A stretch of DNA of 64,000 nt from Minisyncoccota bacterium (GCA_041389025.1 JAWKSP010000001.1:256002-320001); one strand, 5' to 3'; positions 22,146 through 25,196 are shown, counted from the stretch's first letter. Translations and numbers: made by a program. The notes: generated by a model from the letters alone, not told the origin.

Positions 22146-23111
22146 ATGAAACTTAAATATAAAGCTGGACTTGAATTGGAAGTATTTACTTTACGTAATG
22201 GTAAAACTATTCCAAATCTAAGTCAAATAATTGATAAAATCAATAAAGGGAAACATTTTGATATTTTATCCGTAGAACTAGGGGCCCGTATGCTTGAAGC
22301 TATTACCCCTACTTATCAAAGTACCGAGGACTTGCTATTGTCGTTACGGACAACAATAGATTGTTTACCATCAGATTGGCAGATTTATTATAGTGCTAGC
22401 GACCCTTACTCTAATGGTGAGGCTGTCGAATTGGTTGAGACTCCAAGATACGTGGCTATTATTAACGCTGTCAGACAAGAAAAATCTGATAGTTGGCAAG
22501 GGGTACTTCAGTTTACCAAATGGTGTTCTCTACATGTAAATATTGGGATCAATCCATGGAGTCCACTTGGTTTACTTATCATGAATACGATAAACAATGT
22601 CGCTCCATACATTGGCTTTATGACTAGGGAAGACTTTCCAGAAAGTAGGGGACACATGGCTATCTGGAGAGGTTGGACTGATGAAGCTAGATTGCCACGT
22701 TATGGAGAAAAATATAATAGTTTTTCAAATTTCTCTAATCGATTTAAATTAACCAAAAAGTTAATTAGGAAAGTTTCAGACGATAATTGGAGTCCAGATT
22801 TAAAACAATCAAGAGACCCGTTTGATAGGAGTGATTTAGGAACAAATTGGAAATTTTGTCGCCCTAAATTATCTGAGAATGGCGTCTGGTATATTGAAAT
22901 CAGAGTCCTACCTTCAATGTCGTTAAAAAATGTGGAAGAATATGTGTCACTGCTCTTATTTGGAATAAATGCAATACTAGAGGGATTTAATCCAGAGGAA
23001 TATGAGGTAACAGACATCGATTTTGCCACTGGAGTAGCTTCAAAAGTCTCTCGACTTTTTCCTGTTAAATCCTTAACTGAAGATGAATGGGAAAATTATT
23101 TTCATTCTTAA
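22146..23111 (+). CDS. carboxylate-amine ligase, glutamate-cysteine ligase family 2 (GCS2/YbdK-like)
   Basis: GLELEVFTL corresponds to the GIELEMQVV motif of YbdK, SLHVNIGI to HVHVG, and WKFCRP...WYIEIRVLPS to WDIRP...VEVRVMD. The start is taken at MKLKYK (ribosome-binding site AAAGGAGGG) rather than 22104. Confidence 0.65.
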   Translation: MKLKYKAGLELEVFTLRNGKTIPNLSQIIDKINKGKHFDILSVELGARMLEAITPTYQSTEDLLLSLRTTIDCLPSDWQIYYSASDPYSNGEAVELVETPRYVAIINAVRQEKSDSWQGVLQFTKWCSLHVNIGINPWSPLGLLIMNTINNVAPYIGFMTREDFPESRGHMAIWRGWTDEARLPRYGEKYNSFSNFSNRFKLTKKLIRKVSDDNWSPDLKQSRDPFDRSDLGTNWKFCRPKLSENGVWYIEIRVLPSMSLKNVEEYVSLLLFGINAILEGFNPEEYEVTDIDFATGVASKVSRLFPVKSLTEDEWENYFHS

Positions 23112-23202
23112 ATTATCAAAGATAGTAGTATACTAACTCTAGTTTCGTGTTAGTGTACTACTTCCTTTTTTATTTTTTAATATTAAATATTTATTAATAA
23201 TC

Positions 23203-23976
23203 ATGGCAAAAGTACTTATAATACAGTTCAAAAAAAATAAAGAGGCAGTAGAGTTTGAAAAAAGGTGTTTTAGTGAAAAATTATATCTGTATAGCGAGTT
23301 GAGATTTATTAATGCGCTTAGCGACGAGGTTGATTGGGGGATGCCGGAATTAATAATGGCTGACTTGGACTGTGTTATATTAAGTGGTTCTAATGAATTG
23401 GATTTTGATGGTGGGCGCCCTGAAGATGATTTGGCAAGAATAACCTCAAAACAATTGGTAAGTAAATTAAGTCCCTTCTTAAGATACTTGTTTGATAAAG
23501 ACGTTCCTACATTAGGTATCTGTTATGGGCATCAACTTATAGGTGCCTTTGCGGGTGTGACAATAAGGTATTCAGAAGAGCAAAAGAAAACTGCTTCACA
23601 CGAGCTTAAATTTTTACTCAATCATGAGGAGATTCCTCTGTTTTCTGGGTTACCAGCTACGATTATTGCGCATTATGGCCATAAGGATGTTTTGGTGGAG
23701 GTGCCAAAGGATGCACAGCTTTTGTTCGATGGTGGCGAACGGTGTCTGGTTCCAGCTTTAAAGTATAAAGAGAACATATTTACTTTTCAGTTTCATCCGG
23801 AATTGACTCATACAGACATAATGAAACGAGCGGTTGATTCCCCTGGGTATTTACCTGAAGGATCAATATTAACTGACATATTTAAACCAGATGATTGCTC
23901 CAATTTAATTGTTAGAAATTTTTGCAAATTTGTTGAAGAAGTTAAAAGTAAAAAACAAGAAATAGCGGGGGCCTAA
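23203..23976 (+). CDS. class I glutamine amidotransferase-like protein (gamma-glutamyl hydrolase/GATase1 fold)
   Basis: GICYGHQLIGAFAG (Cys-His nucleophile elbow) and FQFHPE (His/Glu of the catalytic triad). Confidence 0.7.
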   Translation: MAKVLIIQFKKNKEAVEFEKRCFSEKLYLYSELRFINALSDEVDWGMPELIMADLDCVILSGSNELDFDGGRPEDDLARITSKQLVSKLSPFLRYLFDKDVPTLGICYGHQLIGAFAGVTIRYSEEQKKTASHELKFLLNHEEIPLFSGLPATIIAHYGHKDVLVEVPKDAQLLFDGGERCLVPALKYKENIFTFQFHPELTHTDIMKRAVDSPGYLPEGSILTDIFKPDDCSNLIVRNFCKFVEEVKSKKQEIAGA

Positions 23977-23995
23977 AGGCCCCCGCTATTTCTTG
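23956..23995. terminator. bidirectional terminator palindrome between convergent genes
   Basis: caagaaatagcgggggcctaaaggcccccgctatttcttg, a perfect palindrome. Confidence 0.7.
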
Positions 23996-24110
23996 TTTTT
24001 AAATTAAATAATTGATATCGATATCAATTTAAAGAACAAACATAACCTATAACAAAGTTATGTAGACATGTATGGTATCGTTTGTAGTTTAGATTGCCAA
24101 ATAATAAGTG

Positions 24111-25196
24111 TTAATTACTCAATTTTAGGGTTAAGAGCCCAAGCAAAAAAGGTGTAACTGTTCTTGAAAAAATTTCTGAACGATGGGCAAAATCACCACT
24201 AATATTTTTATCTAGTGAAAATCCAGTCTCTTCTTTTATGGTGCGATCTATGTGTGAAGCAGTAATAGCTCTTAAGCTACCTTTGCCATCGACCTTGTCA
24301 TTACTACGAGTTACTATTACACCTACTACTTCTCCAGAAGAATTTAAAACCGGACCACCAGATGAGCCTTCTGCTCCAACATTGGTTCCGCGAATGGAAA
24401 ATACGTCAGCATAGTTTGAACCAAAAGTATATAATTCAGAAATAGTAGTAGTAGCGCTAACTGGTAGTAAAGGAGAACTGGCCCCATTTTTAAGTAGATC
24501 TGTAGCTGGATAGCCGGCAGCTTGGACTTCTCGGTTTTTCATGGTTCTTGGCATTAGTTTTGTATTTAAAGCTAGAGCCGGAAAACGAGCCGGCAAGGGT
24601 TCTTTATTTATAGATTCTGACACATATAGCAAGGCATAATCACGTTCACCAGTCCCCGTTGGGGCTAAGCTTTTTATTGAATCAATATTCTTCTGCATCC
24701 AAGCTGGTGGTATGTAGAGTAAGTCTGCTTGGTACTTGGCTGTAGCTGGATTTCCGGTACGCACCACGCACTCAGCCTCACCAAGAAGGTTGGTTTTTTC
24801 TAGAAGTAGATATTGAGCTACATGAGCGTTGGTAAGAATAACTCCGTCACTATGCACAAAGAAGCCGGTGCCGGTGGTGGTGCGAATTGTGTCATTAGTA
24901 GTGAAGGTACAATATATATTTACTAAGGCTAGAATAGGGTCATTTATAGTATAGTTTGGTTCTGAGTCAATAACGGTGGCAGCTTGGTATTCTTGGCTTT
25001 TTATAAGAATATCAGGAATATTACTAAAAGTAGTGGGTAAAGAGGGTAGTAGATCAGACTGATTACCTGTTTCTTCGTTTACGATGACAATGTTTCCTTC
25101 GGTAGGAAACCAGCCGGTTATTTTATCTGCTAAATAATTAGTAAAGGCTAGATAGGTACCAAGAATGACTACTATAATTTCAAAGAAAAAATTCAT
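24111..25196 (-). CDS. membrane-anchored trypsin-like serine protease (S1 family)
   Basis: N-terminal transmembrane helix; GTGFFVHSDGVILTNAHV (His), D, and GSSGGPVLNSSGEVVGVIV (Ser) form the triad. No PDZ domain. The start is taken at MNFFFEI; a -10-like TGTtaaaat lies upstream. Confidence 0.75.
   Translation of the reverse strand: MNFFFEIIVVILGTYLAFTNYLADKITGWFPTEGNIVIVNEETGNQSDLLPSLPTTFSNIPDILIKSQEYQAATVIDSEPNYTINDPILALVNIYCTFTTNDTIRTTTGTGFFVHSDGVILTNAHVAQYLLLEKTNLLGEAECVVRTGNPATAKYQADLLYIPPAWMQKNIDSIKSLAPTGTGERDYALLYVSESINKEPLPARFPALALNTKLMPRTMKNREVQAAGYPATDLLKNGASSPLLPVSATTTISELYTFGSNYADVFSIRGTNVGAEGSSGGPVLNSSGEVVGVIVTRSNDKVDGKGSLRAITASHIDRTIKEETGFSLDKNISGDFAHRSEIFSRTVTPFLLGLLTLKLSN

Follow-up and report, generated by a model that had tools for sequence, protein, structure and literature searches.

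PuuA/PuuD, IpuC/IpuF, and TdnQ/TdnT are gamma-glutamylation/deglutamylation pairs, in which a ligase of the glutamine synthetase (GS)/glutamate–cysteine ligase (GCL) superfamily stands beside a Cys-His-Glu hydrolase of the class-I glutamine amidotransferase (GATase) fold. A pair of the same kind is encoded in a 64,000-nucleotide stretch of a Minisyncoccota bacterium genome (GCA_041389025.1, JAWKSP010000001.1:256002-320001; hereafter, the window), where a predicted carboxylate-amine ligase gene and a GATase gene follow a small open reading frame (ORF) that we call P4. We compared this locus with its relatives in the candidate phyla radiation (CPR)/Patescibacteria, bacteria that have tiny genomes and depend on hosts for amino acids, and in which gene regulation is almost unexplored. 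With modest confidence, we favor a reading in which the two enzymes make and break a gamma-glutamyl-type amide on a small molecule (or, in a sub-variant, the GATase feeds ammonia to the ligase) and in which the ligase is gated by a ribosome-sensing attenuator. The components are of known kinds: ligases of the GCL superfamily accompanied by hydrolases of the GATase fold, and attenuators with a leader peptide; we know of no description of a leaderless terminator switch attached to this ligase family.

Several other described systems share part of this anatomy. The lipid II amidotransferase MurT/GatD likewise consists of an ATP-dependent ligase and a class-I GATase encoded by separate, neighboring genes, but MurT has a Mur-ligase fold and GatD is a CobB/CobQ-type GATase, whereas the window ligase is assigned to the GCL fold and its GATase is GuaA-type. 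Compared with PafA/Dop–Pup, the peptides encoded at our locus are hydrophobic, the partner of the ligase is a GATase rather than a ligase paralogue, and proteasome genes are absent; Pup-like tagging was rejected because there is no conserved C-terminal GGQ/GGE, with one of the 19 small peptides ending in Q. The Klebsiella amidoligase CfmP is an ATP-grasp enzyme and irrelevant here. As in the trp, thr, and his attenuators, a short ORF lies at the 5′ end and its translation status would be read through competing RNA pairings; unlike those leaders, the ORFs described here are longer (17-37 aa), have a hydrophobic half, and lack a clear series of regulatory codons.

Iyer, Burroughs and Aravind (2008; PMC2588565) described GCS2-sized amidoligases neighboring GATase-like thiol peptidases, predicted that they synthesize glutathione-like peptide metabolites, and stated outright that small conserved ORFs of the Pup kind were missing. 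Our locus shares the neighborhood logic of those enzymes (later Pfam Amidoligase_2), whereas the window family is nearer to GCS2, with PF12224 (Amidoligase_2) touched weakly by one of 75 family members, and does have a conserved small ORF, apparently a regulator. Leaderless small-ORF attenuators that act on translation are documented in mycobacteria, where the mRNAs of polycysteine small ORFs start at the AUG (Canestrari et al. 2020, bioRxiv 10.1101/834739). The predicted mRNAs of our locus start in the same way; here, however, an intrinsic terminator suggests transcriptional control, whereas in mycobacteria a ribosome-binding site is unmasked.

A divergent ligase family with a predicted GCL fold

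The ligase ORF (22146-23111, plus strand; 321 aa) begins at an ATG that is preceded by a GGAGGG Shine-Dalgarno sequence and falls at the same start residue in orthologues. Its product is a 100% match to a hypothetical protein of an NCBI metagenome-assembled genome (MAG) labelled Candidatus Paceibacterota, and the genome with the closest synteny to the window bears the label Candidatus Saccharibacteria. The protein alone gave no match in Pfam or NCBIfam, even at E<=10, and did not reach the gathering score of PF04107; phmmer against the PDB returned noise only. Since these direct searches were empty, profile and fold methods were required for its assignment. A word-indexed homologue search found two to six relatives, and in its initial run one besides the query itself, while an exhaustive HMMER search yielded 100 cluster representatives of the family (50% identity; ~300-370 aa), 75 of which were used for the profile and alignment.

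With an E value of 2.7e-9, the 75-sequence profile matched 1r8g, the YbdK structure from E. coli, and the alignment brought the ExE, E..T, and RP..E.R motifs of the two into register; ExE lies at the N terminus of the ligase and RP..E.R at its C terminus. PF04107 (GCS2) was reached individually by 19 of the 75 members (best 9.2e-12). Residues E10, E12, E51, R239, E251, and R253 are invariant across the 75 sequences and H130 across the seven closest relatives, in keeping with the conserved acidic/His and Arg residues of GCS2. By analogy with GshA structures, the acidic and His residues are presumably metal ligands and the Arg residues form the ATP/acyl-phosphate site. An AlphaFold model generated from the same alignment had a predicted local distance difference test (pLDDT) score of 96.5 and a predicted template modeling score of 0.94; the deep alignment was needed, as a model from two sequences only had a pLDDT of 41. 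The leading Foldseek matches of this model were plant GCL, GshAB, YbdK, and GshA, indicating a GCL/GS-type ligase fold with GCS2 members as the nearest relatives.

Identity to YbdK/GCS2 and plant-type GCL structures (1r8g, 1tt4, and 2gwc) is 12-16%, and every sampled locus of the family comes from a CPR/Patescibacteria genome. The ligase thus represents a divergent family without a Pfam or NCBIfam model, and one could be built from the present alignment. A sequence-only reading of the window had drawn three ORFs here, for the ligase, the GATase, and a protease, all of which are present, and had labelled the first "GCS2/YbdK-type", which is correct at the fold/superfamily level only. By analogy with this superfamily, the enzyme is expected to convert a carboxylate, most likely the gamma-carboxyl group of glutamate, into an acyl phosphate and then to join it to an amine.

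The ligase is paired with a class-I GATase-fold protein

The GATase gene (23203-23976, plus strand) encodes a 257-aa protein and has no visible Shine-Dalgarno sequence upstream. PF00117 matched with 70 bits (cutoff 22.8), and C107, H198, and E200 were invariant in an alignment of 12 orthologues, in agreement with the intact Cys-His-Glu triad that had been read from the sequence. A match to PF07722 (Peptidase_C26; 22.8 bits, cutoff 20.5) was marginal and covered a partial stretch only. By profile, the nearest solved relative was subunit A of archaeal GMP synthase (GuaA; E 2.5e-25), with a weaker match to the plant gamma-glutamyl peptidase GGP1 (9k7i; 6.7e-14). Two NCBIfam models named "glutamine amidotransferase", PRK07567 and PRK09065, were matched as well. 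Since neither the ligase nor the GATase has hydrophobic segments, both are predicted to be cytoplasmic. A PADLOC anti-phage scan returned nothing for either protein.

For comparison, we assembled 16 distinct loci encoding a ligase-family member (related loci bear numbers from L001 to L017). Pattern scans based on alignment A3 (A2 was too divergent for this) added just one genome locus and two metagenome loci, and tblastn of a Kaiserbacteria-type ligase member against plasmids gave zero matches. Among the 15 loci with a readable flank, the window included, the ligase and GATase genes are adjacent in 14 (the window, L001-L004, L007, and L009-L016), in reversed order in L016. The pair spans two deep CPR lineages, Saccharibacteria-like and Kaiserbacteria-like; to the latter we assign L003 and L004, which are GC-rich (the window has ~35% GC) and encode SecD proteins 71-74% identical to those of Candidatus Kaiserbacteria. 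The sequence-only reading had taken the two genes for a pair, and this synteny supports the pairing: the ligase and the amidohydrolase form an evolutionarily coherent unit.

The partners of the pair vary between the lineages. In Kaiserbacteria-like loci (L003 and L004-L006), two tandem ligase paralogues, of 366 aa and then 323-337 aa, precede the GATase gene, and neither L003 nor L004 has MscS or the S1 protease found near the pair in the window. L004 additionally encodes a third GCS2 protein, which is divergent and lies on the opposite strand, along with a CMAS-type S-adenosylmethionine-dependent methyltransferase, and L003 encodes a BTLCP transglutaminase-like cysteine peptidase; the surroundings (SecDF, PDH, and the CMAS-type methyltransferase) are unlike those of the window, and the layout looks like a small amide-metabolite pathway. 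In L017, an M20 peptidase occupies the GATase position beside the ligase, and L015 has an M20 peptidase in addition to the GATase. The S1 protease (9 loci), MscS (7 loci), and an extracytoplasmic function (ECF)-type sigma factor with a DUF5667 protein (8 loci) were found in Saccharibacteria-like loci only, where NUDIX, TrmB, and tRNA-Gly genes are likewise syntenic. The MscS proteins are 47-73% identical to that of the window; the corresponding ranges are 39-63% (protease), 39-51% (GATase), and 28-53% (ligase).

The spacer between the two genes contains an AT-rich 14-bp hairpin followed by a T-run (23124-23178, plus strand; hairpin 23124-23162), a predicted internal terminator or attenuator that a consensus terminator scan had missed because of its AT-rich stem. 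A hairpin is present in this spacer in all 13 loci compared (the window and 12 others), including L016, where it lies between the reversed genes. The earlier claim that the ligase has its own terminator is therefore borne out. In L002, a Saccharibacteria MAG, the ligase and GATase genes are fused in frame into a 607-aa ORF. Comparison of L002 (8950-9015) with L001 (1150-1245) attributes the fusion to a 31-nt deletion between GTGCAC repeats that removed the ligase stop codon and the hairpin; it may be natural or an assembly artefact. Downstream, the GATase gene shares a 20-bp bidirectional terminator (23954-23997) with the convergent protease gene.

The gamma-glutamyl make/break logic that had been proposed for these enzymes is reasonable, and the pair is conserved. 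Its Puu-type form, polyamine catabolism, was not borne out: the ligase resembles GCL, not GS, and an oxidoreductase (oxidase or dehydrogenase) gene was not found near the pair among the Pfam-scanned window genes at 16.5-30.6 kb or the annotated genes of the related loci.

Leaderless small ORFs with terminators precede the ligase

P4 (21918-22028, plus strand) encodes a 36-aa peptide, MKTIATTVSNSNEYQKQCISFVLFWIFSYFGWSVGV, whose N-terminal half is polar and Thr-rich and whose C-terminal half is hydrophobic. Its sigma-70-type promoter (21884-21911, plus strand; TTGACA, 16 nt, TATACT) agrees with the consensus at 11 of 12 positions, and the -10 element ends 6 nt 5′ of the ATG. The unit is closed by an intrinsic terminator (22048-22084, plus strand; -20.3 kcal/mol) with the core AAAATCCGGCC-ACA-GGCCGGATTTT followed by a T-run, which scores on either strand. 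Three similar units lie upstream on the same strand: unit 1 (18557-18643; 28 aa; terminator ~18671-18694), unit 2 (19556-19663; 35 aa; terminator 19687-19713), and unit 3 (20096-20203; 35 aa; terminator 20223-20257). Since the -10 elements end 6-7 nt before the ATG, the small-ORF mRNAs are predicted to be leaderless.

These data modify two statements of the sequence-only reading. The ligase had been placed directly downstream of P4; it is indeed a constant neighbor, but the two are 118 nt apart and P4 has its own promoter and terminator. What had been called a peptide array does consist of four small units (starting at 18557, 19556, 20096, and 21918), but these are interleaved with other genes, including an MscS channel gene (20733-21842), identified in the Pfam scan, that follows unit 3 and a 65-aa ORF.

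The strict pattern TTGACN, N16-18, TAnnnT, N5-8, ATG occurs at four sites in the 64-kb window, all at the small ORFs, and in a further 133 kb of related loci (~197 kb in total) it was found only at ORFs of 17-37 aa. The promoter/ATG/ORF/terminator geometry was identical for 15 of 15 small ORFs examined in 12 loci, and 19 units were collected overall. The spacer between stop codon and terminator is 14-29 nt in 15 units and mostly 21-27 nt overall, with one outlier of 47 nt (L003_A). The ligase gene is immediately preceded by such a unit in the window, L002, L007, L008 (where the contig end cuts it), and L009-L015; in L016, the unit heads the operon that holds both GATase and ligase genes. In the Kaiserbacteria-like loci, it precedes ligase paralogue A in L004 and both paralogues in L003, and the start of L001 falls inside what appears to be the 3′ arm of a leader terminator. 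The small ORF stays with the ligase even in L013 and L015, in which the genes farther upstream differ. Leaderless small ORFs with the same promoter geometry also precede other genes, namely those for a 467-aa protein, the M20 peptidase, and MscS in L015 (7021-7089) and a 90-aa ORF in L016 (7401-7466), which suggests a wider regulon using the same switch.

The peptides themselves are unrelated between lineages, while the ligase is conserved. Within the Saccharibacteria-like lineage, the N terminus M[QK][TS]IATT recurs together with a hydrophobic C-terminal half. N-terminal halves are enriched, not universally, in Thr (16% vs 7% background) and Gln (8% vs 3%). A codon-position comparison gave an equivocal signal of coding selection in the small ORFs, with differences at all three positions and second positions somewhat spared. 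Sensing through Cys-rich or Met-rich leaders was considered for the Kaiserbacteria-like units and rejected, as such composition was seen in two and is not general.

The genes that follow units 1-3 differ from one another. Unit 1 precedes a 184-aa ORF (18911-19465) without a family match, unit 2 a basic 46-aa ORF (19844-19984), and unit 3 the 65-aa ORF (20415-20612); the latter two have no Pfam match and are kept in L002 with 52 aa and 66 aa. A palindrome, GG.GAAAATTTT...AAAATTTTC.CC, lies after the terminators of all three units (18700-18745, 19735-19772, and 20280-20319), standing before the small ORF that follows units 2 and 3, and it recurs in L009 and L010 between the leader terminator and the ligase. 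It may form another hairpin in the RNA or serve a DNA-binding protein as operator.

The small ORFs are complementary to their own terminators

Within the last codons of P4, the predicted antiterminator strand TGGCTGGTCGGTTGG (22007-22021, plus strand) is complementary to the 5′ arm of the P4 terminator; this duplex has an energy of -12.0 kcal/mol and begins 22 nt before the ORF end. In each of the 19 units, such a segment occupies part of the last ~6-10 codons or lies at the stop codon, and its complement is the 5′ arm of the unit's own terminator. The sequences involved change together from unit to unit, as in the ORF/arm pairs GGTCGGTT/CCGACC, GGGGCGG/CCGCCCC, GCGGGTCA/TGACCCGC, GAGGGGC/GCCCCTC, and GGGGGTCTT/AAGGCCCCC.

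Compared with composition-preserving shuffles, the duplex energies had a mean z of -2.9, with p<=0.05 in 16 of the 19 units. When partners were permuted among the 19 units, the summed energy was -205.0 +/- 11.3 kcal/mol, as against -272.5 kcal/mol for the cognate duplexes (z -6); for a subset of nine distinct units, mostly with GC-rich arms, the corresponding values were -106.0 +/- 8.4 and -150.5 (p<=2e-5). Pairing between the arm and the first part of the ORFs is weak (-4.6 kcal/mol, compared with -14.3 kcal/mol for the 3′ segment). In the minimum-free-energy fold of P4, ACAACCG (codons 6-8) pairs with CGGTTG.

ORF/terminator-arm complementarity that co-varies is the anatomy of a leader-peptide attenuator, and in silico the units combine a promoter-proximal short ORF, a terminator, and a predicted antiterminator overlapped by the ORF. 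An Rfam scan of 18.5-26 kb returned tRNA-Gly as the sole above-threshold match; matches to Leu and Phe leaders were sub-threshold noise.

Proposed mechanism and alternative explanations

In the mechanism that we favor, a ribosome that reaches the P4 stop codon would cover the antiterminator strand, allowing the terminator to form and transcription to end. A ribosome that is stalled early, or absent, would leave the antiterminator strand free to pair with the 5′ arm of the terminator, and transcription would read through into the ligase gene. The second hairpin, after the ligase gene, may uncouple or down-tune the level of the GATase. The ligase would form an acyl phosphate, probably gamma-glutamyl phosphate, and couple it to a small amine or amino acid, and the GATase would hydrolyze the resulting amide. 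A hydrolytic role of the GATase is suggested by the M20 and transglutaminase-like partners found in other loci and by the neighborhood logic of Iyer et al. (PMC2588565). Alternatively, the GATase might split glutamine and pass the ammonia to the ligase, a sub-variant that is favored by its GuaA-like affinities.

Several observations weigh against this mechanism. The replacement of the GATase by an M20 peptidase is a single case (L017), and subunit A of GuaA, a true glutaminase, outranks GGP1 as a relative of the GATase. On the regulatory side, a reversed-arm control was just moderately weaker than the real arms (-11.5 vs -14.3 kcal/mol; p 0.0045), pairing of the trp-type regions 1 and 2 was not significant across the units (mean z -0.6), and the small ORFs share no universal run of regulatory codons. 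Their C-terminal halves are consistently hydrophobic (53% L/F/V/I), which a pure leader would not need and which hints at selection on the peptide itself. Finally, the order promoter, small ORF, leaky terminator, enzymes is also the classic layout of a gene cluster for a ribosomally synthesized and post-translationally modified peptide (RiPP), as a precursor gene followed by a leaky terminator is known from such clusters.

The sequence-only reading had indeed proposed a RiPP-like module, in which the small ORFs encode precursors that are tailored by the ligase and GATase and processed by the S1 protease. Such a module would be in keeping with the small ORF, equipped with a strong promoter and followed by a terminator, that directly precedes the ligase throughout the Saccharibacteria-like loci (in L016 alone, the unit stands at the operon head instead), with the recurrence of the N-terminal motif and the hydrophobic half within that lineage, and with the free N-terminal amine and C-terminal carboxylate that each peptide offers. 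However, the peptides of the 19 units have no Lys, Asp, Glu, or C-terminal residue in common, and the peptides diverge between lineages that share the ligase. The co-varying complementarity is accounted for by attenuation and not by a substrate role, and identical units precede unrelated genes (the 184-aa, 46-aa, and 65-aa ORFs in the window, and those for the 467-aa protein and M20 in L015). Among the neighboring genes scanned or annotated, there was no RiPP recognition element, transporter, or leader peptidase (C39-type), which also counts against a RiPP cluster. The protease, for its part, is encoded on the opposite strand, is predicted to face outward, and is absent from L003, L004, L016, and L017. 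Given the attenuator anatomy, the lack of a conserved acceptor residue, and the paralogous units before unrelated genes, we consider peptide substrates improbable: the coupling of small ORF and ligase is real and best read as regulatory, with P4 as an attenuator leader ORF. A hybrid, in which the small ORFs are both sensors and membrane peptides whose termini are capped and decapped (by gamma-glutamylation or amidation) by the ligase and GATase, would constitute a new RiPP-like class that carries its own attenuator, and we regard it as very improbable.

The remaining alternatives concern the pairing of the enzymes and the association of the small ORFs with them. The two enzymes might instead be subunits of a glutamine-dependent amidoligase, the GATase channeling ammonia to the GCL-fold ligase for amidation of an acyl-phosphate-activated carboxylate, much as in MurT/GatD or in a glutamine synthetase whose nucleophile derives from glutamine. 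The best GATase matches, GuaA subunit A, PRK07567, and PRK09065, are glutaminase subunits; the genes are strictly adjacent with a 1:1 partner in most loci; the L002 fusion, if real, indicates that a fused product is at least tolerated; and GS and GCL enzymes naturally accept ammonia as a nucleophile. Yet wherever the genes are unfused, a terminator-like hairpin stands between them, which would be unusual for a stoichiometric complex; the fusion comes from the GTGCAC-repeat deletion and could be an assembly artefact; L017 has M20 instead of the GATase; and in L003 and L004 a single GATase is accompanied by two ligase paralogues. We also know of no precedent for a GCL-fold synthetase with a class-I GATase, and on the whole such a complex appears unlikely. 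It could also be supposed that the small ORFs have no tie to the ligase and encode small membrane proteins or type-I-toxin-like products, and that all these genes are neighbors merely through conserved gene order in the lineage. Peptides of 24-37 aa with a hydrophobic half do resemble many small membrane proteins and toxins, and synteny extends far beyond the pair, to the sigma factor, DUF5667, NUDIX, TrmB, and tRNA-Gly. But the pair and its upstream leaderless unit recur in Kaiserbacteria-like loci in which all other neighbors are different, the small ORF remains with the ligase in L013 and L015 despite their different upstream genes, and complementarity to the terminator arm would not be expected of an unrelated gene; we give this explanation little credence.

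Returning to the make/break pair with an attenuated ligase, a lineage-restricted GCL-fold ligase that is nearly always accompanied by an amidohydrolase would point to an unrecognized nitrogen or amino-acid (gamma-glutamyl or amide) metabolism in CPR bacteria. As a plausible but still tentative extension, leaderless leader-peptide terminator switches (a "ribulon") may tie this lineage-specific amide-ligase module to translation status in CPR bacteria. A conserved leaderless-ORF terminator switch would be a directly testable cis-regulatory mechanism for these organisms, and the locus illustrates that when a small peptide gene adjoins enzymes of a tailoring type, the arrangement can be regulatory and need not be a RiPP cluster.

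The S1 protease and the wider surroundings

The protease gene (24111-25196, minus strand) encodes a predicted membrane-anchored S1 (trypsin-fold) serine protease of 361 aa. Its ATG at 25196 is backed by orthologues, while the longest possible ORF would start from a GTG at 25229. The protein matched Trypsin_2 (E 1.4e-15), has a single hydrophobic segment, at its N terminus, and contains the motifs TNAHV, ERDYAL, and GSSGGP, from which the triad H125/D186/S279 was assigned; the earlier description of a transmembrane-anchored, convergent S1 protease on the opposite strand thus holds. No PDZ domain was matched, and matches to the NCBIfam MarP and HtrA models were far under their cutoffs. Identification as HtrA/DegP or MarP was rejected on these grounds and because the protein has one hydrophobic segment rather than a four-transmembrane N-terminal domain. 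PADLOC similarity to the RT-protease and LmuA models reflects the generic S1 domain, and a defense role was rejected.

Inclusion of the protease in a module with the pair, as had been suggested, is not supported. Besides its opposite strand, predicted outward orientation, and absence from the four loci named above, two of which are Kaiserbacteria-like, its co-occurrence with the pair tracks lineage synteny: the sigma factor, DUF5667, NUDIX, and TrmB genes are conserved around it as well. The protease is a separately transcribed neighbor kept by this synteny.

At 16462-18514, the gene for the ECF-type sigma-70 factor, which has regions 2 and 4, runs into the beginning of a gene for a 492-aa DUF5667 protein. 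This pair lies directly upstream of leader unit 1 and is kept in eight loci. The DUF5667 protein is possibly an anti-sigma factor, and the membrane S1 protease a possible site-1 protease for the pair.

On the other side of the protease gene, a tRNA-Gly(TCC) gene (25304-25375) is followed by a candidate structured RNA (25418-25576), with a minimum free energy of -64.7 kcal/mol (z -6.2). Its two ends, GCGGGTGA...GAAGAATCG (5′) and CGATTCTTCTCACCCG (3′), pair with each other, and the latter repeats 15 nt from the 3′ part of tRNA-Gly without a mismatch (chance expectation 0.11); a third, degenerate copy lies at 25614-25628. Rfam and ARAGORN gave no assignment for 25418-25576. The candidate is kept in three loci (the window, L002 at ~12400-12650, and L009 at ~5830-6000) and could be a tRNA-like or tmRNA-like RNA or the remnants of att sites.

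An IS-type transposase gene (27839-28714, minus strand; rve/rve_3 core and HTH_32) lies 2.5 kb beyond tRNA-Gly and the repeated 3′ ends, beside a CYTH-domain gene (29171-29749) and a TrmB-family regulator gene (29746-30561). GC skew is positive at ~10-32 kb, where the genes are mostly on the plus strand, and negative at ~32-44 kb, where they are on the minus strand, so that the switch at ~32 kb fits strand-biased gene orientation.

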